From Pseudomonadota bacterium (lineage in GTDB: Bacteria > Bdellovibrionota > Bdellovibrionia > Bdellovibrionales > SG-bin7): a DNA stretch of 11,212 nucleotides. Under the pieces are notes generated by a model, which ran no database searches, had not been told where the DNA came from, and saw nothing but the letters and a program-made list of their open reading frames with translations. Within the stretch, counting starts at the first letter, position 1; each line of letters opens with the position of its first letter. This document shows positions 9-11,212 of the stretch, piece after piece. The position numbers and the translations under genes are program-made. Where the stretch lies: NCBI GenBank assembly GCA_034439715.1, contig JAWXAY010000102.1:1-11212 (forward strand), written 5' to 3'.

Positions 9-21
9 AATCAAAGAGTTA
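9..21 (+). promoter_or_regulatory. IHF binding site consensus match
   Basis: AATCAAagagTTA matches WATCAANNNNTTR exactly, has an A-rich 5' flank, and overlaps the base of the long hairpin. Confidence 0.5.
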
Positions 22-138
22 CCCCCCGCCGCCTCCCTTTTTCTTGTCCCTGGTCGGCTTAAGACCCCTCTCCCCCAACGATGTTGTAGTGATAGGGGTC
101 TTAAGCCTGGTACAAGAGTGAGGCGGCGGTGGGTAACT
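17..138. repeat. Long imperfect inverted repeat (~122-nt hairpin)
   Basis: Paired blocks: AGTTACCC 17-24/GGGTAACT 131-138; CCGCCGCCTC 26-35/GAGGCGGCGG 120-129; TCTTGT 42-47/ACAAGA 112-117; GGCTTAAGACCCCT 56-69/AGGGGTCTTAAGCC 94-107 (14 bp perfect); CAAC 76-79/GTTG 83-86 closing a GAT loop. Confidence 0.93.
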
Positions 139-150
139 GGGAGTAATAAA

Positions 151-561
151 ATGGTAGATAATATTAGTAATAATAATAGGGAGAATAATTCAGAAGAGGT
201 AAGGGAACAAAAAACAACGGAGGAAGTATTTCGGATAACGGTGACCAAAGATGCAGAAAAAGCATTGATTGATTTGGTCGACAAAGTGAACCGTGGATTT
301 GATGGTGGCAAAATCAATCGTACAGAAATGGCAAGCTGGGCCTTAACGCGTTTGGTTCGTAATATGGATGAGGCAATGCTTCAGGATATCCGGGCCGAGT
401 ATTTTGATGAGATCGCAGCTTTAGAAGTCCTCTGGCGCAAGGCAAAAGAGCGTGGCCGCGTTTCCAGCGAGGTAAAGCAACTGCTGTTAAAAGAGATCGG
501 TTTTGAGGGCTCCACAAAAAAACCACCCAAAACAAAAGTTGACAAGGAATTACACCAATGA
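151..561 (+). CDS. Hypothetical protein (136 aa), probable ribbon-helix-helix-type DNA-binding protein
   Basis: ATG at 151 has GGGAG at 139-143; the track's GTG at 118 lies inside the hairpin. The segment FRITVTKDAEKALIDLVDKV..KINRTEMASWALTRLV fits a strand-helix-helix pattern, and the C-terminal tail is basic. Confidence 0.6.
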   Translation: MVDNISNNNRENNSEEVREQKTTEEVFRITVTKDAEKALIDLVDKVNRGFDGGKINRTEMASWALTRLVRNMDEAMLQDIRAEYFDEIAALEVLWRKAKERGRVSSEVKQLLLKEIGFEGSTKKPPKTKVDKELHQ

Positions 562-831: not shown

Positions 832-1038
832 ATGGGTAAAAAGAATGCTAGTCTGAAACCAGGCGATCTTTCTGCGAAAACCATTGAGTATGTATCTCAA
901 CGTTCATCAAAAGACGTTAACGATGCCGATTTGAGGCGTATTGAGGTCATTACAATTCTGGAAGAAATTTTTCGCCTTGGTGGTCGTCGAAACCAAAAGC
1001 GAGCAGAGCAAATGGAGGACAATCAAGATGCCGCTTAA
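832..1038 (+). CDS. Small hypothetical protein (68 aa) overlapping the recombinase start
   Basis: ATG at 832 with AAGGA at 822-826 (track start 796). It fills the gap between the XRE gene and the recombinase and overlaps the recombinase ORF by 11 nt. Confidence 0.6.
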   Translation: MGKKNASLKPGDLSAKTIEYVSQRSSKDVNDADLRRIEVITILEEIFRLGGRRNQKRAEQMEDNQDAA

Positions 1039-2755
1039 AATTGGTGCATACATTCGTGTCAGTACTGAGGAGCAGGCCCAGGTTGTCGAGGGCTCACTTG
1101 ATTCCCAGAAGTTTAGAATTAAAGGTTATCTTGATATTCGTAATAACCAGGATGCTGGCTGGGGAAAGATCGTCGAAACATATATTGATGACGGTTATTC
1201 TGCCAAGGACACCCGTCGGCCTCAGTATCAAAAGATGATGCGAGACATTCGCACTGGCAAAGTTAATTTGATTTTAGTGACAGATCTTTCTCGTCTTTCG
1301 CGCAGTATCGCTGACTTCTGCGACCTATTAAAAGATCTCGAACGGTTTAAAGCGAAGTTTTTGTCGATCAAAGAACAATTTGATTCAAGCACACCTGCTG
1401 GCGAGATGATGCTGTTTAATATGATTAACCTCGCCCAATTTGAACGAAAGCAAACGTCTGAACGAGTTGCTACAAACTTCCATTCGCGAGCCCTGCGTGG
1501 GCTCAAGAATGGTGGCGCCCATATCCTTGGCTATGACACTGATCCGACAAATCCGGGCAAGCTGATTGTCAATGATGAGGAAGCAATATGGGTGCAAAAG
1601 GCTTTTGAAATTTACCTTGAGAAAGGAAGCACGCGGGAAACCGTTGCCGAACTCAATAGCTTAAAGGTTCCCCGCAAAATGACTGCTCGCACGGATGATC
1701 GTCATGCGAAAGGCAACGTATGGACCTATTCTGCGATAAAAAATCTCCTTCGCAATCGTGCATATATTGGTGAAAGAGAAATTAATTGTGAAAACAAAAA
1801 TGAAGATGCTTCGGCTTTGAAGCCTTGGCAAAAATACCAAGTTGCCAAAGCCTCTTGGCAACCAATCATTGAATCTGTGACATTCAATTCTGTTCAGCGC
1901 CTTCTTGATGCAGCGAAATCATTGCATAGAGAGAAGATGTCGAAAGCCGAACATCGTGTGTTCATATTGTCTGGTGTGATTCGTTGTGGGGAATGTGGCA
2001 GTGCGCTCATTGGCCAGTCTGCACACGGTAAATACCAAGTGCATCGCTATTATAATCACAAAGACAACGGCAGTGGGCAGCCAATTGAGTGCTCCGTGAA
2101 AAGATATAATGCTGAGGAGGTTGAGAAAACAATTCTTGAACATTTAGCCAAAGATGCTCAAGACGCTGGATATTTGGATGATATTGAAAAAGTGCTTGTT
2201 GCCAACGGCCAAGTTTCAAATTCTGGTCTTAAGAAGGCAATTCAGCGAATTGAAAAAACCATTAAAAAAACTGACGAGGAAATCGAGTCCATTTTTAAAT
2301 TCCAATTACAGAATTCACTAACTTCAAATACTTCTCAGCTTGTGGCCGAGAAGCTTGAAGGACTTTCAATTCAAAAGAAGCGCCACCAGGAAACTTTGGC
2401 GGAGCTTTTGGATAAGGAACATGAATTACTGGAACCTAAAGAAGCAATTACCGGAATTGAAGATCGGCTTTTGAGTTTTAAAAAGGCGATGCCGAGAGCC
2501 AGTGCTCCTCTGCTAAAACGGTTGATCCGCAACCTGTACGATGTCCTTTTCCTGAATGAAGGTCGGCTTGAGTGCTTCTACATTACTGCCAGTTCTAATC
2601 CTGCCAGTATCCAATCATCTAAAATGAAAAAGGCTTCGGGGGTTCTCCCTGAAGCCTTTTCATCACTCTTTAAAAATCCAATCCTACAATCATCAAACGC
2701 CGAGTGGCAGTTTAATGGACCAAAAGTTGCCTATTGGTCGAAATGGTGGACGTGA
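1028..2755 (+). CDS. Large serine recombinase/integrase (575 aa): resolvase catalytic domain, recombinase domain, Zn-ribbon and coiled coil
   Basis: Catalytic motifs YIRVST, DDGYSAKDTRRP and DLSRLSRS; helix E AQFERKQTSERV; Zn ribbon LSGVIRCGECG...YYNH...C; then a coiled coil. ATG at 1028 has GGAGG at 1014-1018, so the track's TTG at 941 is unlikely. Confidence 0.95.
   Translation: MPLKIGAYIRVSTEEQAQVVEGSLDSQKFRIKGYLDIRNNQDAGWGKIVETYIDDGYSAKDTRRPQYQKMMRDIRTGKVNLILVTDLSRLSRSIADFCDLLKDLERFKAKFLSIKEQFDSSTPAGEMMLFNMINLAQFERKQTSERVATNFHSRALRGLKNGGAHILGYDTDPTNPGKLIVNDEEAIWVQKAFEIYLEKGSTRETVAELNSLKVPRKMTARTDDRHAKGNVWTYSAIKNLLRNRAYIGEREINCENKNEDASALKPWQKYQVAKASWQPIIESVTFNSVQRLLDAAKSLHREKMSKAEHRVFILSGVIRCGECGSALIGQSAHGKYQVHRYYNHKDNGSGQPIECSVKRYNAEEVEKTILEHLAKDAQDAGYLDDIEKVLVANGQVSNSGLKKAIQRIEKTIKKTDEEIESIFKFQLQNSLTSNTSQLVAEKLEGLSIQKKRHQETLAELLDKEHELLEPKEAITGIEDRLLSFKKAMPRASAPLLKRLIRNLYDVLFLNEGRLECFYITASSNPASIQSSKMKKASGVLPEAFSSLFKNPILQSSNAEWQFNGPKVAYWSKWWT
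2627..2660. terminator. Bidirectional intrinsic terminator-like hairpin inside the recombinase ORF, likely the tRNA terminator on the minus strand
   Basis: AAAAAGGCTTCGGGG-GTTCT-CCCTGAAGCCTTTT. The minus strand continues TTTTTCATTTT after the stem and the plus strand has TTTT. It lies ~85 nt downstream of the tRNA CCA. Confidence 0.7.
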
Positions 2756-2819
2756 CAGGAATCGAACCTGCGACCCCAAACATGCCATGCTTGTGCTCTC
2801 CCAACTGAGCTACACGCCC
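2744..2819 (-). tRNA. tRNA-Ala(GGC), 76 nt, CCA encoded
   Basis: Reverse complement is GGGCGTGTAGCTCAGTTGGGAGAGCACAAGCATGGCATGTTTGGGGTCGCAGGTTCGATTCCTGTCACGTCCACCA. The acceptor stem has the G3:U70 Ala identity pair; D stem GCTC/GAGC; anticodon loop AT-GGC-AT; T loop TTCGATT; discriminator A. Confidence 0.98.
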
Positions 2820-2845
2820 TCACCATAAAACCACACGAAATTTTT

Positions 2846-2873
2846 AATATACCTGTCGTTCTCCCGGCAACAA
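2846..2873 (-). promoter_or_regulatory. Possible sigma70 promoter for the tRNA
   Basis: Minus strand TTGTTG-16 nt-TATATT (alternative -35 TTGCCG) ~25 nt upstream of the tRNA, with AT-rich upstream sequence. The match is weak. Confidence 0.3.
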
Positions 2874-2913
2874 AAAATATTGAATATTAATGCCCTACTT
2901 GAACTGCTGACTC

Positions 2914-2929
2914 TGGTACGAGCATTGCA
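2914..2929 (+). promoter_or_regulatory. Sigma54 (RpoN) -24/-12 promoter
   Basis: TGGTACG-AGCA-TTGCA versus consensus TGGCACG-N4-TTGCW: one mismatch and exact GG-N10-GC spacing, 64 nt upstream of the ATG at 2994. Confidence 0.65.
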
Positions 2930-2993
2930 AAACAACTTAATATTAATCTTATGGTAAACCAGCTGGTTTTTAAGGCAAAGGAACTAGACACTC

Positions 2994-4196
2994 ATGTCAA
3001 AAAATGTCACGGCGACGCCCCAGGGTCTATATCCGGAGAAAGATATTGAGACCCTCACGCTCGAAGTCTTAAATCCCTACGCCTTTAGACAAAACGCAAA
3101 GACTTTGAGGAATCTTACGGTCCCCGATCAATTATTCGTGGGTCGCTTTGAAGTTTTTGATTTGATGCGCGGGCTGGCGCTGGTTCTGATGATCCTCAGT
3201 CACACCACCAAGGGGCTCCTAAATTGGGAACAATACCCAGCGTGGGGTTTAGTTCCTATTCATCTCATCACAAAATTTTCGTCGTCACTCTTTATACTTA
3301 CCTTCGGAGCCACGCTTGCCATCGCTTACCTCCCCCACGTCGGTACTCGGCTTTGGCCAAAGAAGAGAAATCAACTTTGGCTACGAGCCATTGAAGTCCT
3401 ATTTTGGTATAAAGTTTTGACGATTGTGCAAATGTTCCAGGTTTACCCAAGAGAACAAATTGTAGATGCTCTCCTATTTAAGACTTTTCCCGACTTCGTC
3501 GAAGTCTTGGGATTTTACAGCATTGCCCTCATGTGGTTACCGCTATTTTTACCGCTATGGGCGCGGATCCATTGGCTGGTAAAGCCTCTTTTGGCAATTG
3601 GCTTAGTCTACGCCCAGTTTAGACTCGTTAATTTTGATTTTTGGGGCAATATTCAACTTAAAGCGTTGTTGGTTGAGCACCCTGGCTACTTTACGTTTGG
3701 CCAAATATCTCGTGGCCCCCTAGTTCTGGGCGGACTACTCATAGGCCAGCTTTTTTTATTCCTACGTTCAGAAAGTTGGGGAAGATTTTATTTAGGCCTA
3801 CTTTTACTTTCGCTGGGTGGACTTTTATTAGGAGCATTTTACGGATTAGTTTTTGAAAACCTTACTAATACTTTTTTTGCCCTGGCAAAAAATGGCGGTA
3901 AGCATCCCCCCGCTCCACAGTTTATGTTATTTAGCGTGGGCGGAGCACTTGTGTTAATGGCGCTTAGTCTATTTGGCGGAAAAATATTGAGTAAGATTTT
4001 AATGCCATTTACCCTCATTGGAAAATTTTCACTCCAAACCTTCGTATTTCATATAGCTGTAATTTTTATTTTCTACAGGTATCTCTTCGACCTCAGACAC
4101 AATATTTCTTATGACAGTACCCTCTTACTGACAGGCTTATTAATCATACTTACTACCCTATGGGCCGGAATTTTAAAATGGCGAAAATCAGTTTAG
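2994..4196 (+). CDS. Polytopic membrane protein, OpgC/DUF1624-like acyltransferase family (400 aa)
   Basis: N-terminal GRFEVFDLMRGLALVLMILSH motif, roughly ten hydrophobic segments, and C-terminal K.PP...FML and IGKFSLQTFVFH motifs. AAGGA at 2978-2982. Confidence 0.75.
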   Translation: MSKNVTATPQGLYPEKDIETLTLEVLNPYAFRQNAKTLRNLTVPDQLFVGRFEVFDLMRGLALVLMILSHTTKGLLNWEQYPAWGLVPIHLITKFSSSLFILTFGATLAIAYLPHVGTRLWPKKRNQLWLRAIEVLFWYKVLTIVQMFQVYPREQIVDALLFKTFPDFVEVLGFYSIALMWLPLFLPLWARIHWLVKPLLAIGLVYAQFRLVNFDFWGNIQLKALLVEHPGYFTFGQISRGPLVLGGLLIGQLFLFLRSESWGRFYLGLLLLSLGGLLLGAFYGLVFENLTNTFFALAKNGGKHPPAPQFMLFSVGGALVLMALSLFGGKILSKILMPFTLIGKFSLQTFVFHIAVIFIFYRYLFDLRHNISYDSTLLLTGLLIILTTLWAGILKWRKSV

Positions 4197-5248
4197 CAGT
4201 CACGTTTCTATCTATTCTTTCTTTTTGTTTCGGAGGCAGTGTCCTAGCGAGTGGCAACCGTCCCACCTTTCCACAAGATCCTCACTGGGCCCGGTATCTC
4301 AACAACAGAATTCAAAAATTAGCACTCAAGACTCAGGGAACGATCGGCGTTTATATTAAGGACTATTCGGATGGTGAAATATTCTCATATAATGCCCATC
4401 GTGAGTGGTATTTAGCTAGCGCTATAAAAGTACCAGTGGCACTCGAAGTCTACCGACAGATTAGTCTAGACATCCTTGATGACAAAAAGCCAATTATCTT
4501 AACCGATTCCGACTTCCGTGATGGAGCGGGATTAACCAATGGGCTTAAGCCTGGCGAAAAAATTTCGTTACGGTATCTTTTAGAGCAGATGCTCATTGAA
4601 AGTGACAATACTGCCACTGACCTACTGATAAATCAGGTCGGCATTGAAAACATTAATCAAAATTTACAAAACACTGTTTTCTGGGGGTTCGGGCCTATAA
4701 CGAGTCTCTTAAACGTTAGAAAAAGCGTGTTTTCTGAATTTGACCAGAAAGGATTTGCGCTGAGTAATCGGGATTTTATAGCTCTTAAGGCACTTAAAAA
4801 GGAAAAAGAAAAATTGAAAAAACTATCCCAGCTTTTGGGCATCGAAGTAAAAGACTTTAAGGTTAAAACTATATCTGAGGCCTTTAATCGTTATTACTTA
4901 AAAAATCTAAATACCGCAACACTGATTGCCTATTCAAAACTTTTAGAAAAAATACTTGAGGGCAAAAATCCTGAGCCCAAAGATTGGCCGCGGGTCTTGG
5001 ACATTATGTTGAAATGCAATACCGGAAAGAATCGAATTGCTGCCGGCCTACCCCCTGATGTTTTATTTGCCCATAAGACCGGAACCCAACACCAACGAAT
5101 TTGTGACTTCGGCATTGCCTGGAAGAAAAATTCAGGAAAAAAGATTTTAATTAGTACATGTATTGAAGGATTCAGTGAACTTGCAAGTGCTGAAAACGCC
5201 CTAAAGAGAATAGGTTCCCTGCTCAAAAATTCTAAAATTTTTAACTAA
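4178..5248 (+). CDS. Exported serine hydrolase of the class A beta-lactamase fold (356 aa)
   Basis: Signal peptide, SxxK (ASAIK), SDN (ESDNTA) and KTG (HKTGT). It overlaps the upstream gene, with an alternative start at 4160. No clear Glu166 omega-loop motif, so beta-lactamase activity is not established. Confidence 0.85.
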   Translation: MAKISLAVTFLSILSFCFGGSVLASGNRPTFPQDPHWARYLNNRIQKLALKTQGTIGVYIKDYSDGEIFSYNAHREWYLASAIKVPVALEVYRQISLDILDDKKPIILTDSDFRDGAGLTNGLKPGEKISLRYLLEQMLIESDNTATDLLINQVGIENINQNLQNTVFWGFGPITSLLNVRKSVFSEFDQKGFALSNRDFIALKALKKEKEKLKKLSQLLGIEVKDFKVKTISEAFNRYYLKNLNTATLIAYSKLLEKILEGKNPEPKDWPRVLDIMLKCNTGKNRIAAGLPPDVLFAHKTGTQHQRICDFGIAWKKNSGKKILISTCIEGFSELASAENALKRIGSLLKNSKIFN

Positions 5249-5257
5249 TTTTTTCTT

Positions 5258-6553
5258 CTATTTTTGTTTTTCTATTTTAAATTCGACTCGGCGATTTTTT
5301 TGTCGTCCCTGGTAGTTGCCATTGTCGGCCACCGGTTGAGATTCGCCAAAACCATAATCGGTTATTTTATCTGTTGTGATTTTAGGATAATTCTTAATAA
5401 GAAAGTTCTTAACCGAAGCCGCTCGTCGTACACTGAGTCCTTGGTTGTAGGCTTCACTCCCCACTGAGTCAGTATGGCCAGAAATTACCAAATGGTATTT
5501 TCCGATAACCAACAAATAATCTGCTAGCTCCCGTAAGACATTGAGTGACGTTTCGTCATTGATTTTATCTGAGTCAAAATCAAAGTTAATATCCAGCACA
5601 ACACGATCTTGTTCTTCAAATTTTTTGGCCACAGGTGAATCCATTTTTTTGTTGATGGGACCAAAGGCATAGTTAACACCGGTGTACACCCGCCAGTCAG
5701 GCGAGCCAGTTCCTTGCAATATCTGTGTGCCGCCACCAAAATGGAAAGCAAACTGCCGAGTTAAATCGTATTTGATACCCAACAGAGCCTCGAGGGACGA
5801 TTGAGATCTAAAGTCAGCTTTATCGCTTTTTTGGGCGGGATAACTGCCAAAGACTTCTAAGATCATTTTTGCGTCAAGGTTCGGCAAGTAATAACTCGCG
5901 GCCATCGATCCAATAATTTGATCTTTAAAGGGTTCAATGGGAACGTTCGGATTTGCCGTGCCCGGATCTCGCAGCCGATATCCCAAGTTTGCTCCAACCG
6001 CCACGCCTCTATACATACGATCTACAGCAAACTCTAAATTATATGTGGGACCGGCTCCTTCGCCAGTGTAGGGATTGTCTTGAATACGATTAAAGTTAGC
6101 ACTGGCGATGACAGCTGTCCCCCCGAAGGAATCTCCACTAAGGCGATATTTCGTATTCACACGTATCTCAGTATTTCCCTTATTTTCATAAAACCCACGA
6201 TAGACGCTGTCGTTGCCGACGTGCTGATACCATATTTGGGGAAAACTTAAACCCACATCCCAATTTTCTTTGAGGCCATATCCGATATTTAAATCGGCGC
6301 CCAGTAGCTCGTCTTCAAATTGAGTGCGAGACCCGTCTGTTTGTTGGAAAATCGGAAGGCTATTTACAGCCAGGTTCATAAAAAACCCTAAATTTACATA
6401 CCCAGGCTCGAGAGTTTCAGAAGAGTGAACTGTGACAAAATCTAATCCACTTGAGATAGCATTAAAATTTTGGGCGTCTGTTCCAACAACATTAGCCTTA
6501 ACAAGGGGGGCAAAAAGGACTACCAAACAAAAAACAGCCTGCCTAATTCTCAT
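5258..6553 (-). CDS. OmpA family outer membrane protein (N-terminal beta-barrel-like region plus C-terminal peptidoglycan-binding domain; 431 aa)
   Basis: Signal peptide and alternating beta-strand pattern ending DWRVYTGVNYAF. OmpA-C motifs INFDFDS, GHTDSVGSEAYNQGLSVRRA and GRQKNRRVEF. Confidence 0.92.
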   Translation of the reverse strand: MRIRQAVFCLVVLFAPLVKANVVGTDAQNFNAISSGLDFVTVHSSETLEPGYVNLGFFMNLAVNSLPIFQQTDGSRTQFEDELLGADLNIGYGLKENWDVGLSFPQIWYQHVGNDSVYRGFYENKGNTEIRVNTKYRLSGDSFGGTAVIASANFNRIQDNPYTGEGAGPTYNLEFAVDRMYRGVAVGANLGYRLRDPGTANPNVPIEPFKDQIIGSMAASYYLPNLDAKMILEVFGSYPAQKSDKADFRSQSSLEALLGIKYDLTRQFAFHFGGGTQILQGTGSPDWRVYTGVNYAFGPINKKMDSPVAKKFEEQDRVVLDINFDFDSDKINDETSLNVLRELADYLLVIGKYHLVISGHTDSVGSEAYNQGLSVRRAASVKNFLIKNYPKITTDKITDYGFGESQPVADNGNYQGRQKNRRVEFKIEKQK

Positions 6554-6659
6554 TATCTAAGCTCACCTACAAACCGACGAATCGTCAAGGGTTTGGGGCC
6601 TAGCTTTAGGTCCAGAAAACAGTTTTATCAGCGCTATGCCTTCGGGGTGGGCCAGAACT

Positions 6660-7106
6660 CTAGATATTTTTTATTTTTAAACCCATGCGAAGCGCATTGG
6701 CAAAATTTCTTTGAGCCGAGAGTTTGTTAAGCTCTTGAACTAAGAAATTTCGAAAAAAAGTGATAAGCGCTCTTCGCGCTAAAATTTTTCTTCTAAATAA
6801 ATCAAAAGACTTTTTGTTACTTGAAACTGGAGAGCAGTAGGCAGCCACTCGTTGACTAGCTCTACAACTATCTAGACGATCCTCGAGACGACTGCTGACT
6901 AAGGCGAGATCTGTAATAGCTAACTCCAGGGCGTAATCTGTAACGTTTTTAGGTTCATGGTTACCTACTGTGGCAAGGCTCACAGCGCTTTCTATCTGCG
7001 CCTCGTAACCTAATAGCCATTGATTTACGGGGGCCACCTTGGCTGAGCTTTCGCTGCCAATAGATAAGACCATAACCAATATCAACCCAAGTGAACTTAG
7101 GAACAT
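6660..7106 (-). CDS. Hypothetical exported protein (~148 aa)
   Basis: Open frame filling the gap between two co-oriented genes. MFLSSLGLILVMVLSIGSESSA looks like a signal peptide. The start is uncertain (7106, 7124 or 7154). Confidence 0.55.
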   Translation of the reverse strand: MFLSSLGLILVMVLSIGSESSAKVAPVNQWLLGYEAQIESAVSLATVGNHEPKNVTDYALELAITDLALVSSRLEDRLDSCRASQRVAAYCSPVSSNKKSFDLFRRKILARRALITFFRNFLVQELNKLSAQRNFANALRMGLKIKNI

Positions 7107-7216
7107 TCGAAACCACTCCCCCATTGAAGTTGGGGGAATATCCGTCGGAAGCACCTATTAAGCAATAGGTAGAGATTTTAGGGAAAACCTTTCAATAAAT
7201 CCTGTTGCCGACCCTT

Positions 7217-10200
7217 TTATTTAGGCTTCATTGAAAAGTAAATTTTTACACGAGGTTTTCTTTCAATAAAATCGTTACTTTGAGAGTCCTCACTATTGGC
7301 ATACTGCGCTTCCACCTCAACTGCGGGACGCACGACTTTAAAGTAAAATCCCTTTTTTTCCACATTTACCGTATCCGTATATCGCCTCTTAGTTTTAGGC
7401 ATTTCTTGCTCAAGGTCATAATACTCAGATACGGCTTTATAACTCGTCAACTCTTTATTAAGGGCTTCATCTGGCACCAAGTTCATAGATTTGAGCTCCA
7501 CCTTATAGGACTGAATTGGCGTAAAATCGCCGTCCGCACTGGGTCTAAACGGCGATAGGCCCGTAACGTGAGAAGCGCCGTGGGCAAAGGGGCGAGTAAC
7601 CCATTTAAACTTGCTGTAATCCATGGGATGATTTTCATTACTGAGTTCTCGAGAATAAATGAGCGAGCGTCCTTCGTACTGAATCTTATTCATCACATTG
7701 AGTGTGCCTTTATATTTAGAACAGTCAGCCTCTACGCCTTCTAAGTATTTGTAATACTCGGTGTGGGAAAAGCACACGAACTCGGCCCTTTGGGCATCCG
7801 TAGTAGTTTTTAATGGCCCCGGAAGAGTGATGTCATTGTAGTATCCATGCTCGTCAAAGTACTCTGGGTTCTTCCAGACAGAAGGCAACAGAAACTCTTT
7901 TTTGTTAGAGTTGAGGACCAATAAATAGCCTTTGCCATCTTGCAATAGCGAATTATTACTCACACGATCATATTTAGAATTGTAATACCATACTACAACT
8001 CCTGGCTGATAACTCGCCGTCAATATACGAAATCGCTCGAGGGAATCGCTTTCGCCCGGTAAGAAAAAACTCTGGCTACTAGGTCCAATATTTCGGTCAA
8101 AGTTATAAGACCTTCCTGCCTTAGTTGACACAAAGTCAGTCGTGGGATTTCGATACTCAAAAAGATAAAATTGATTGTGATCGAGATACTGAATGCCATC
8201 TTTAATTTTAAAAAATGAGCCAAACGAACTGTCAGCAGTCGCACCTTCGAAATCTACTTTTTGTGTGCCAAGACTAATATTATCAACAACAATCCCCAGC
8301 TCAGTGTAACCAGGATCAGTCACATAACGGACCTCGAGTTCAATTTCACTTCCGGCTAAGGCGCTGACATCATATTTTTTACTGACCCAAATTGGAGTAC
8401 GACAAACGGCGAGTTTCTTTTTAAATTCTTCGGTTTCTGCTTCCGTCGATGTTTTAGAAAAAACTTTTAGCCGCAGTTCTTTCACGCGGGCTACTTCACA
8501 AGTAACGTTAGATTCTACCAATGAGTCTTGATCCGCATCGCCAGAAAGAAGTCTCAGTCGGTCAACTTCTTTGCCATTAATTAGAACCAAAGCAATATCA
8601 TAATCTAAAGTCACTTTTATCTGAGGGTCAGCCGATTCAAAATTGGTCTCTGTTTCTATAAAATAAAGAGTTTCAAAGGTGAGTTCAGCGGCCCCTTGAC
8701 TGGGGACATTCAAATTCGCCTTCAATGAATGGGTCTGATTGTCGAACTTACCTGAATAAGCCGTGATGCTGCCTAGCTCTGCTTTATTATCAAAAAGCTT
8801 TCGCGCCTCAGCCGTGGGCGGCATCATCGCAATTGCAGATCGGTAGACGGCCTCATTGGTTTCTGGTACGCGAGAAAGCACATCATAAGTGTGTTCAACA
8901 TTGTTGGGACCAACTGTTTCTGTCACAAGGTCGGTCTCTAAAGAGGTGTTAGCACTTTGACGACGCTCAGGACTCACGAAGTTTAATGATCCTAGGTAAA
9001 GTGATCCCAAACCAAGCCCGGGATTCACAATTTTTGGCGACAACCAGCCCAACGATAGTCTGCTATAGGAACTCTGCTCCTGAGCGTAATTCGTGGAATT
9101 AGAACTCATGATTTCCCACTCACCTGTCGAATTCCCTTCAGACTTTGTCGCGTAAACATCAGGTAGCGTGAGTGAGTGTCCAAACTCATGAATGAAAGTA
9201 GAAACGTCAGAAGTTTCTGACTGCATATTGTAATCTAACGCATAAACCGCATCATTAATTTTAAGACCATTTAACGAAGGACGTTCAAGACCTTCAACGT
9301 CTGGCCCCTTTTCAAGATAATCAGGATCATCTTTTGCTAATGAAATTCCTGAACGATGTGGCCAAATTCTGTTGAAACACTCTACGGCTGCTTTCTTTCG
9401 GGGACCTTCGGGGTAATCTTTACTCGAAGGTTTCTCACCTTTTGGATCAAAACTTCTTTGGCAAGACGCCTGCGACTTCCCTGCGTAAACCAGAACAACT
9501 GCGTCAATAAAACCGTCGGATTCGTAATGGTTATTATCGCCGTCGTAATCATAGAGATCCCAACGATCAAACTGCTTCCAAAATTTGGGATCATTTTGCA
9601 ACTTCATCAGTTCTTTCAGGGCATGTACTACGAGATGCTGAGGGTCTTTATCATTAGAACCGCCAATCGCCTCACCATACTCAACCAATTCCTTAGGAGC
9701 TGTCACAATAGGGGCGATTTCTCCCCTGACATCGAGCAGGCCCTGAGACTCGTGCGAATAATAACTATGAAGGCTGTTTTCATTTTCACCAAAAATAGCT
9801 TCGTCGGCGAGGCTCTTACCACTTTGACCTTTAGCAAAATATTCTGGACGCATAAATTTAACATCTGCAAACTGAACGGGAATAACTAATACATTGTATT
9901 TACCTTTTAGCGAAAAAAGTTGAGTGTTCTCGTTCATTTGATTTGCGAGAAGAGATTGATTGGCCCGAGAGAGGCTTGAAGAAAGCCTTTTCTCGTTGAG
10001 TTTCTCAAGAAGTTTTTTGATCGCCTCCTCTATGGCTTGACGCTCACTTGTGCCTTCATCTAATTTATTGGCTTCTGCTTTTTTTTCTGCCACATTTTTA
10101 GCCAGGTCACCCAAAATAATATCATTTCTTGTCGGTGATAATTTCTGGGATTTCTGACAAGCAGATGTGCCCAACAGAAGCGCTAGCAACAATGTTAAAC

Positions 10201-10228
10201 CTTGAATTTTCGATTGAACTTTTGGCAT
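7217..10228 (-). CDS. M6 family (immune inhibitor A-like) zinc metalloprotease, predicted lipoprotein (1003 aa)
   Basis: HEFGHSLTLPDVY zinc motif, VLVIPVQFAD, YDYDGDNNHYESDGFID and GEWEIMS Met-turn. Lipobox LLGTSA-C. ATG at 10228 has a GAGGGG ribosome binding site, preferred over the track start 10324. Confidence 0.9.
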   Translation of the reverse strand: MPKVQSKIQGLTLLLALLLGTSACQKSQKLSPTRNDIILGDLAKNVAEKKAEANKLDEGTSERQAIEEAIKKLLEKLNEKRLSSSLSRANQSLLANQMNENTQLFSLKGKYNVLVIPVQFADVKFMRPEYFAKGQSGKSLADEAIFGENENSLHSYYSHESQGLLDVRGEIAPIVTAPKELVEYGEAIGGSNDKDPQHLVVHALKELMKLQNDPKFWKQFDRWDLYDYDGDNNHYESDGFIDAVVLVYAGKSQASCQRSFDPKGEKPSSKDYPEGPRKKAAVECFNRIWPHRSGISLAKDDPDYLEKGPDVEGLERPSLNGLKINDAVYALDYNMQSETSDVSTFIHEFGHSLTLPDVYATKSEGNSTGEWEIMSSNSTNYAQEQSSYSRLSLGWLSPKIVNPGLGLGSLYLGSLNFVSPERRQSANTSLETDLVTETVGPNNVEHTYDVLSRVPETNEAVYRSAIAMMPPTAEARKLFDNKAELGSITAYSGKFDNQTHSLKANLNVPSQGAAELTFETLYFIETETNFESADPQIKVTLDYDIALVLINGKEVDRLRLLSGDADQDSLVESNVTCEVARVKELRLKVFSKTSTEAETEEFKKKLAVCRTPIWVSKKYDVSALAGSEIELEVRYVTDPGYTELGIVVDNISLGTQKVDFEGATADSSFGSFFKIKDGIQYLDHNQFYLFEYRNPTTDFVSTKAGRSYNFDRNIGPSSQSFFLPGESDSLERFRILTASYQPGVVVWYYNSKYDRVSNNSLLQDGKGYLLVLNSNKKEFLLPSVWKNPEYFDEHGYYNDITLPGPLKTTTDAQRAEFVCFSHTEYYKYLEGVEADCSKYKGTLNVMNKIQYEGRSLIYSRELSNENHPMDYSKFKWVTRPFAHGASHVTGLSPFRPSADGDFTPIQSYKVELKSMNLVPDEALNKELTSYKAVSEYYDLEQEMPKTKRRYTDTVNVEKKGFYFKVVRPAVEVEAQYANSEDSQSNDFIERKPRVKIYFSMKPK

Positions 10229-10449
10229 TTGATTCCCCTCGGGATGGCTAATTTTCGAATTCCTTTGTACACTGGAACCGCTTTTGCCGCCATAGCCAGA
10301 TATGATGTTGACATCACGTTCCAAGTTGAGTAGCTAGCCATTTAAGTGAGAATATTGTTCGCGTTATTTCTTTTTATTTTGAACTCCTTAAGTAGCCCAA
10401 ATGGTTGGGCTAGTGCTTATACCAACGCCCTGGAAGTTGAGTTCATCTT

Positions 10450-10995
10450 ATGTTGACGTTAATTTCTGGAACAGACAGGAAGAACTCAAACACCCTAAAA
10501 GTTTCGCTTATTGTAAAACGAATTATCGAAGAAAAAGGTGAAAAAGTTCAATTCGTCGATTTGGGTCAGTTGCCGGAAGGTCTTTTTAGTTCAAAAAACT
10601 ATGGCACAGCTCCCTCTTCGTTCGCAGAGTTCCAGCGCATGATTCTCGAAACGGATGGCATCTTGACCGTTGTTCCTGAATATAATGGCAGCTTTCCCGG
10701 TGCACTAAAGTATTTTATTGATTTGTTAAAATTTCCTGAAAGTCTTTTCAGAAAGCCTGCGGGTTTTATTGGACTTGCCGCCGGTCAGTTTGGCGGCCTT
10801 CGCGCTGTGGAACAACTAGAAATGATATTTAACTACCGTGAAGCCAATCTATTTGGGCAAAAGGTATTTATGCCAAAAATTAATGATAAACTCTCGAGTA
10901 ACGGACAAGAAATTGTCGATCCCTTTATTAAGGACCTCCTGCCAAAAATGATATCGGGATTCTTGTCCTTTAGCCAAAAACTTAGTAAACACTAG
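10450..10995 (+). CDS. NADPH-dependent FMN reductase (flavodoxin-like, SsuE/ChrR family; 181 aa)
   Basis: ISGTDRKNSNT phosphate-binding loop, PEYNGSFPGALKYFID signature and GQFGGLRAVEQL. Confidence 0.93.
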   Translation: MLTLISGTDRKNSNTLKVSLIVKRIIEEKGEKVQFVDLGQLPEGLFSSKNYGTAPSSFAEFQRMILETDGILTVVPEYNGSFPGALKYFIDLLKFPESLFRKPAGFIGLAAGQFGGLRAVEQLEMIFNYREANLFGQKVFMPKINDKLSSNGQEIVDPFIKDLLPKMISGFLSFSQKLSKH

Positions 10996-10997
10996 CT

Positions 10998-11212
10998 GTG
11001 CCATTAATTCTTAGAAATTATACTCCTTTCCAATTTTCTATTTTCCGCGTGACCCTTTGTCTTTATATGATGTTCTTGTTCTGGCGGTATCTACCGTCGG
11101 TTTTTGCGAGTGATGGCTTTAGTCTGACCTATCTTGACTTCTTCCCACAAAAATATGTTTTTTCATTTTTTGGAATATTGTCTTTGGCTTTGCTACTCGG
11201 TTTTTATAGGCG
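10998..11212 (+). CDS. Partial membrane protein (5' part only), possibly HTTM-domain; not in the ORF track
   Basis: GTG at 10998, 2 nt after the FMN reductase stop, opens a frame to the window end: MPLILRNYTPFQFSIFRVTLCLYMMFLFWRYLP...FSFFGILSLALLLGFYRR, with two hydrophobic segments. The family assignment is tentative. Confidence 0.6.
   Translation, partial: MPLILRNYTPFQFSIFRVTLCLYMMFLFWRYLPSVFASDGFSLTYLDFFPQKYVFSFFGILSLALLLGFYR

Follow-up and report, generated by a model that had tools for sequence, protein, structure and literature searches.

A tRNA-Ala-targeting large serine integrase whose gene is very probably split by its own attachment site

Why should the gene of a large serine recombinase take its last codons and its stop from the antisense of a tRNA gene? 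The locus lies in an 11,212-nt stretch of DNA (here called the window) that opens contig C102 of a Bdellovibrionales genome assembly (G000), and its features are collected in Table 1. The initial annotation had proposed a tRNA-targeting serine integrase with its attachment (att) site in its own 3' end, which would allow the integrated and the excised state to encode different C-termini.

Table 1. Features of the window, with the basis on which each was placed
Feature	Position	Strand	Basis
Nested long inverted repeats, non-coding gap after relaxase-like gene	17..138	.	Arms 17-41/114-138 and 56-72/91-107
Element backbone ORF, 136 aa, conserved	151..561	+	50% identity to same-position ORF of the G043 element
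XRE-type HTH protein, 75 aa	585..812	+	HTH_3 at cut-off; MqsA_antitoxin below cut-off
Small conserved ORF, 68 aa, 11-nt overlap with integrase start	832..1038	+	Conservation across loci
Large serine recombinase, integrated (short) form, 575 aa	1028..2755	+	Pfam domains, invariant residues
Linker codons, non-conserved, about aa 520-573, doubling as terminator and att arm DNA	2585..2747	+	Limits by homology
Hairpin and T-run on tRNA strand	2628..2660	-	z = -4.0; 0/200 shuffles fold as well
Element-side att arm (P), supplying tRNA CCA and discriminator base	2720..2747	+	Inverted repeat at far junction
att core, common with far junction	2742..2751	+	10-nt exact match, window vs L191; centre of arm symmetry in family
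tRNA-Ala(GGC), integration target, sole copy called in assembly	2744..2819	-	ARAGORN
Host att arm (B), tRNA acceptor stem and T arm	2750..2775	+	T-loop motif 4-5 nt further out in P arms
Host chromosome, outside element	2994..11210	.	Acyltransferase/OpgC-like, beta-lactamase-fold, OmpA, M6 peptidase and FMN reductase genes

The integrase gene and its RNA gene targets

The integrase ORF runs from an ATG at 1028 to a TGA at 2753-2755, in a frame that is itself open from a TTG at 941. Its Pfam matches all lie above cut-off (Resolvase, aa 7-158; Recombinase, aa 184-294; Zn_ribbon_recom, aa 313-373), and the catalytic S12 is invariant across 47 integrase homologues together with R10, R89, R92, C320 and H344. 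The protein fits the large serine integrase order of a resolvase domain with the serine nucleophile, a recombinase domain, a zinc ribbon and a coiled coil, the helices of the last being present in the structure model of a natural family protein, P0103. Pfam returned serine recombinase domains only, and not the tyrosine recombinase fold of the Mx8 and SSV families; scores against NCBIfam stayed below the curated cut-offs of SCCmec CcrB (135 bits, 900 needed) and XisF (130 bits, 375 needed). Past residue 520, column identity within the family drops to about 0.2.

As initially annotated, the W-W-T-stop end of the ORF (2744-2755) is the reverse complement of the last 12 nt of the tRNA, CCA included. 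This overlap is beyond chance, judging from 90 distinct homologous loci, a non-random sample of best-scoring matches and hand-picked loci that favours high scorers. Sixty of these overlap a called tRNA or tmRNA gene in antisense, which answers the earlier question of whether homologues also end in tRNA genes; seven are long fused ORFs, 19 have no called RNA gene, three run off the locus and one lies near an RNA gene without overlapping it. Among the 19, some terminate in antisense resembling that of a tRNA, or where tandem elements join. The targets of the family comprise tmRNA and the tRNAs for Ala, Arg, Asn, Asp, Gln, Leu, Met, Pro, Ser and Val. In 2014, according to the available part of the Islander paper (PMC4383910), no serine integrase was known to have a tRNA gene as its target. 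At E <= 1e-40, integrase homologues were found in 160 of the 384 genomes of the order. Viral contigs yielded one distant locus. In the window's own genome, further family integrases run into tRNA-Arg(CCT) on C52 and tRNA-Asn on C49.

Element-free site, far junction and attachment site

Two runs (X7 and X8) contain the same host without the element. Window positions 2734-5000 are covered there with few differing letters (2 per contig at the junction), while positions 1-2733 are represented by only two short, diverged pieces, both in X7. The tRNA-Ala locus is thus present without the integrase in both runs, as a comparison with empty sites had been expected to reveal for an integrated element, and in both an identical loose stretch of 23 letters stands ahead of 2734. 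A pattern scan of metagenomes returned eight loci, seven of which start a far-end tail-type ORF. One of them, L191, shows in order the same 23 letters, 10 letters with 2 differences from 2734-2743 (those also found in the X7 and X8 contigs), the 10-nt core and an inverted arm, beyond which a 162-codon ORF opens in the frame of the window integrase. L191 is a contig from the assembly of another sample, and its tail could be that of a sister element at the same site. Three states can be seen in what these sequences represent: a pre-insertion state with the tRNA beside an older related element, the window junction and the far junction. When the ends were rejoined in silico across attP, the integrase read into the L191 ORF, giving a predicted circle form of 734 aa. 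Past its tail ORF, L191 continues with a conserved 63-aa ORF (also found near tRNAs, in the window's own genome on C62 and C24) and a type II toxin-antitoxin-like pair.

Since contig C102 begins with the window, the other end of the element cannot lie within it. Elsewhere in the same assembly, including upstream, no direct repeat of the tRNA 3' end was found except in other tRNAs, and a fuzzy search of the genome for the inverted arm gave no convincing match, the far end being absent from this assembly. The genome's own tail copies on C83, C32, C10 and C48 were ruled out as the partner, being in the wrong frame, lacking a matching arm or broken. No circle junction was seen in the X7 and X8 contigs, which cannot show rare circles.

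The gene content of the element can be judged from its relatives. The closest relative of the integrase (66-68% identity) overlaps tmRNA in genome G043 and belongs to a complete 33-kb element that carries T4SS genes and is marked by a GC drop and a 7-nt repeat. At the far end of this element, about 33 kb upstream, the 7-nt repeat at the GC drop is followed by an inverted copy of the integrase's pre-core sequence, and the junction opens a 162-codon ORF in the frame of the integrase. The att pair encloses integrase, VirB4, coupling protein and relaxase, the gene set of an integrative conjugative element (ICE). The last 18 nt of contig C14 of the window's genome overlap exactly with the window from position 1, and this contig encodes a VirB4-like protein, a coupling protein, TrbI, CagX and a MobC-like relaxase (the relaxase match lying below the family cut-off). 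From this overlap and the G043 gene order it follows that the window is very likely one end of an ICE. At least four related T4SS modules occur in the genome, on contigs C7, C14, C36 and C38.

A gene that merely reads by chance into the tRNA, as part of a fixed chromosomal recombinase, has as its sole point the missing far end in the window's own assembly. It is refuted by the element-free host, the matching far junction and the 60 of 90 homologues that overlap RNA genes, and we regard it as exceedingly improbable. The same evidence, with the frame test described below, supports the proposed tRNA-targeting serine integrase with att inside its own 3' end.

Across the family, att cores measure 6-16 nt and are flanked by inverted attP arms around a central dinucleotide; cores this short leave repeat-based island finders little to detect. 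Arm symmetry averaged 17.2/28 when both arms came from one element, 11.7 when they came from different elements and 6.4 for host arms, and reached 19/28 for the window and L191, a value partly built into the search pattern. We infer that the crossover dinucleotide is 2748-2749, corresponding to tRNA nucleotides 72 and 71. With arm symmetry centred on tRNA 71-72, the element restores only the discriminator and CCA. The core (2742-2751) leaves out the stop codon, so the one objection that the initial annotation had raised against a C-terminal switch alone, a core containing that codon, falls away.

The T-loop motif [GC]AAC occupies position 15 of the B arm in 24 of 25 elements, a placement partly fixed by the anchor used. 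Among the 19 frame-2 elements, position 20 carries it in the P arm of 11 and in the P' arm of nine; in the window's class it sits at position 19, and it is absent from the three frame-1 elements. In the motif model for canonical integrases, as given in the available part of PMC3783163, the zinc-ribbon motif of attB stands 5 bp nearer the centre than that of attP. The offset seen here would fit that shift, though not uniformly, and the window family may in this respect resemble the canonical integrases.

The hairpin upstream of the core is probably an element-supplied terminator for the tRNA transcript. Such a hairpin was present no more than 200 nt from the 3' end of the RNA gene at 29 of 49 loci compared to 5 of 49 control stretches. 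A consensus scan of the window did not pick up the one at 2628-2660.

Reading frame across the junction and nature of the tail

Both ends are available for 25 elements, 24 of them with the two ends on one contig and the other being the window/L191 pair, and in 24 of the 25 the far-end ORF reads through in frame with the integrase. These elements share ancestry and are not independent, so no p-value is given; only two frame shifts are seen among them. The frame classes of core and tail are 2/2 in 18 elements, 0/0 in three and 1/1 in three, with one mismatch (G118, out of frame). A first pairing pass had comprised 28 comparisons, 25 in frame and 24 with read-through. From these, G008:C8 (integrase undetected) and L179 (no tail) were left out, as were the second G080 tail and three of the four G129 tails as further tandem copies, and the window/L191 pair was added. 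Core frame 2 is kept at 55 of 64 loci across 28 distinct linker lengths, from 35 to 123 aa, and the frame-0 and frame-1 integrases form one clade each in a quick tree of the last 330 residues. Further along, in codons 11-18 past the junction of seven frame-0 far ends, pairwise differences at codon positions 1, 2 and 3 numbered 26, 27 and 55. A frame kept through many indels points to translation across the junction and is otherwise hard to explain; at the sequence level, this comparison shows that selection keeps the integrase and tail halves in frame.

The far-end ORF might instead be a separate gene, or the relic of an ancestral long integrase; the matching frame would then be a legacy, and the fusion would do nothing at present. 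An in-frame ATG, GTG or TTG precedes the tail HTH in 13 of the 25 tails, some of which could consequently be made alone, and some tail copies carry stops or have no integrase nearby, besides the one pair out of frame. Against this, the other 12 have no start codon, third-position bias begins upstream of any start codon, the frame is kept over the 28 linker lengths and the tail frame tracks both frame shifts; none of the 13 possible starts has a Shine-Dalgarno-like 4-mer. We hold a separate gene or relic to be very unlikely, and an integrase gene split by its own att site and rejoined on excision to be highly probable.

The AlphaFold model of the tail consists of two folded parts (mean pLDDT 86). 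According to the model, the first half is an HTH and the second half is a second copy of the integrase recombinase DNA-binding domain. Tail residues 83-161 gave their best match with the recombinase domain of an SPbeta-type integrase (Z 9.1, rmsd 2.4, 78 aligned), and the second half also matched aa 153-244 of the family's own integrases (hhalign, 88.6%); a Foldseek search run alongside gave no match at E <= 0.001. The window family shares its domain order and symmetric attP arms about a dinucleotide with SPbeta, Bxb1, phiC31, A118/LI and TP901-1, while against solved canonical chains the tail aligns solely with the one recombinase domain that each has. Canonical large serine integrases are not known to have a second copy of this domain or an att site inside their gene.

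The tail profile was found in 210 of the 384 genomes of the order and in 63 of 151 sampled from the phylum, nearly always in an open frame of 150-250 codons. Phage records gave no tail match, and plasmid records five partial ones, to recombinase domains. A search for longer proteins with the same profile returned one protein and missed known fusions, and is to be regarded as uninformative. P0103 is a natural 740-aa protein composed of integrase and tail, the latter 45% identical to the 162-codon ORF of G043; its model shows the integrase, a disordered linker (residues 521-590, pLDDT < 50) and the folded tail.

The seven natural fused ORFs (L172, L107, L100, L173, L174, L175 and L134) encode full-length chimeric integrases in the chromosome, about 720-790 aa long. 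As read from their sequences, such chimeras arise where elements that share a frame class are stacked at a single tRNA. Two of the natural fusions are tandem junctions, and arm symmetry in the scored fusions does not exceed 14/28; the natural fusions accordingly look like hybrid junctions between tandem elements rather than self-attP, none being a proven free circle. At two other tandem junctions, L191 and L044 (G000:C83:1309-4728), the frames of the older integrase and the newer tail differ and no fusion results. Frame class may limit tail exchange between elements. Tail ORFs also occur in pairs 1.5-4 kb apart (G475:C29, G505:C292, G491:C1, G036:C4 and G187:C10), and these are possibly small non-autonomous elements or eroded tandem arrays.

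Proposed function and relation to known systems

The different C-termini proposed for the two states find support in a core upstream of the stop and an in-frame far-end ORF. The change appears larger than had been suggested, as one residue and a stop are exchanged for about 160 residues with two predicted folded DNA-binding domains. A stability or degron switch through the tRNA-coded tail, which had also been considered, was set aside, those tails varying from 3 to 45 aa. The split architecture is well supported, and from it we infer the switch function.

The serine integrase would recombine at tRNA nucleotides 71-72, a site within its own gene. On the excised circle the gene would read through attP into about 160 codons for a disordered linker, the HTH and the second recombinase domain, yielding the 734-aa protein. 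Integration would shift the tail codons to the far end and leave the tRNA antisense to provide a short, arbitrary tail and a stop. The long circle form would be the one that integrates efficiently, like Mx8 IntP, a tyrosine enzyme from which the direction of the effect is borrowed, and its extra DNA-binding domains would probably grip DNA beside attP or attB. The short form would be catalytically whole and excise only with a separate factor. Given a split and rejoined gene, we consider it somewhat more likely than not, by this analogy, that the long form favours integration; the whole explanation, with a long integrating form on the circle and a short excising form, has in our estimate a little better than an even chance of being correct. 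The short form retains every domain that known serine integrases need, so there is no obvious requirement for the tail in integration.

The 68-aa ORF ahead of the integrase is a candidate for the separate factor, as a directionality factor or regulator. An ORF of 45-90 aa ends at the integrase start at 55 of 64 loci; most copies overlap the integrase gene by 11 nt and contain a KRGRP-like motif. The window copy had no match in Pfam, NCBIfam or Atlas. Most copies of the conserved ORF, of 66-80 aa, end in Ala-Ala, which is partly forced by the integrase overlap.

Two other functions of the tail would leave the split gene in place. The integrase could carry, as its tail, a regulator of transcription or of replication and transfer, the integrase gene being rejoined on excision with the recombination chemistry unchanged; the tail would bind operators elsewhere in the element, for instance the repeats at 17-138, and signal the excised state. 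Such a role would suit the N-terminal half, a plain HTH like those of transcription factors, the disordered linker of 50-70 aa, which uncouples tail from core, and the short form, which holds all integrase domains. The C-terminal half is nevertheless a copy of the att-binding recombinase domain and points to att-like DNA, and a regulator would have no need to stay fused over 28 linker lengths unless it is to be made only on the circle; we judge this role unlikely. The repeats at 17-138 are themselves a candidate oriT or control region of the element, and a stretch 79% similar to them is present on contig C36.

Alternatively, the tail could act as a brake, like a built-in directionality factor, by competing for att half-sites or re-routing synapsis, and so hold back re-integration in the donor or favour excision of a tandem neighbour. 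Lacking a catalytic partner, a duplicated att-binding domain could conceivably compete in this way, tandem junctions do place long chimeric forms in chromosomes, and recombination directionality factors (RDFs) are described in the available part of PMC11722253 as reversing direction by repositioning an integrase subdomain. Yet an incoming element has the long gene only and must integrate with it, and the small conserved ORF already occupies the possible position of a directionality factor. A brake consequently appears distinctly unlikely, and the long form as the integrating form is the reading we retain.

The directionality of serine integrases is usually explained by att geometry together with a separate RDF. 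If the proposal is true, a DNA-binding module present in one recombination state only would add a genetically encoded layer of directionality. More broadly, there may be a phylum-wide class of serine integrases in which direction is set by gene architecture, recombination adding or removing a duplicated att-binding domain and an HTH so that circle and integrated element produce enzymes of different DNA-binding valence, and in which tail-shuffling in tandem arrays yields chimeric integrases that aid moves between tRNA targets; this generalisation is tentative, and we would put the balance somewhat against it.

The initial annotation had taken the precedents for an integrase gene spanning its own att site to be tyrosine enzymes, which needs correction, as serine cases exist in DsiB (PMC3146451) and the streptococcal rumA ICEs (PMC4701971). 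In the available part of the work on the Dehalococcoides ssrA islands (McMurdie et al. 2011; PMC3146451), dsiB always overlaps attL, and the authors suppose that DsiB may reach full function only in the circular state or with another island next to it. Similarly to the window integrase, DsiB is a large serine recombinase whose 3' end lies over att at the 3' end of an RNA gene and whose stop is supplied from outside, and the DsiB islands also occur in tandem, as the elements of the window family do. The two are set apart by target and neighbours: the DsiB islands target tmRNA only and carry DsiA, ParB and Mom genes, with no conserved far-end domain named in that part of the paper, whereas the window element targets tRNA-Ala and has three small ORFs and a T4SS as neighbours. 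The tail thus names, though in another lineage, a 3' fragment that the DsiB paper, as far as available, could only suppose. In the rumA ICEs (Ambroset et al. 2016; PMC4701971), a serine integrase has att in its own gene, its C-terminus changes and a functional difference is proposed; unlike in the window, the target is a protein gene, the 3' parts are swapped with rumA, and no DNA-binding tail is described in the accessible part of the source.

Among the tyrosine enzymes, integration of Mx8 swaps 112 residues of IntP for 13 and lowers its activity (PMC4701971; also PMC6070905, both as available). The arrangement is like that of the window, with attP inside int and a long C-terminus giving way to a short one, whereas the enzyme is a phage tyrosine recombinase of unrelated fold and chemistry. 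The suicidal integrases of archaeal SSV1 and pTN3 likewise have a gene split by its own att and form chimeras from neighbouring elements, yet in these tyrosine enzymes the split severs and inactivates the catalytic domain, while the catalytic core of the window integrase stays whole (PMC8371274, as available). That review, in the same part, calls self-disrupting recombinases exclusively archaeal, and the accessible part of PMC12884075 yielded nothing on split genes. In a literature search of mostly non-subscription main texts, no published description of a far-end tail of HTH and recombinase domain was found. The principle of att within the integrase is already published; that search turned up no account of the two-domain tail, of how widely it occurs or of the frame evidence.

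For genome mining, it would follow that the annotated chromosomal gene in this integrase family is the short form. Enzymes that recognise the acceptor and T-arm sequence of tRNA genes could also serve as insertion tools.

As for the remaining features of the window, the conserved 136-aa ORF matched no Pfam or NCBIfam family. In the host chromosome beyond the element, an OpgC/acyltransferase-like gene overlaps a gene with the class A beta-lactamase fold and the catalytic box LASAIK (2994-5248, plus strand), and positions 7217-10324 on the minus strand encode a 1035-aa M6 (immune inhibitor A-like) metallopeptidase lipoprotein.
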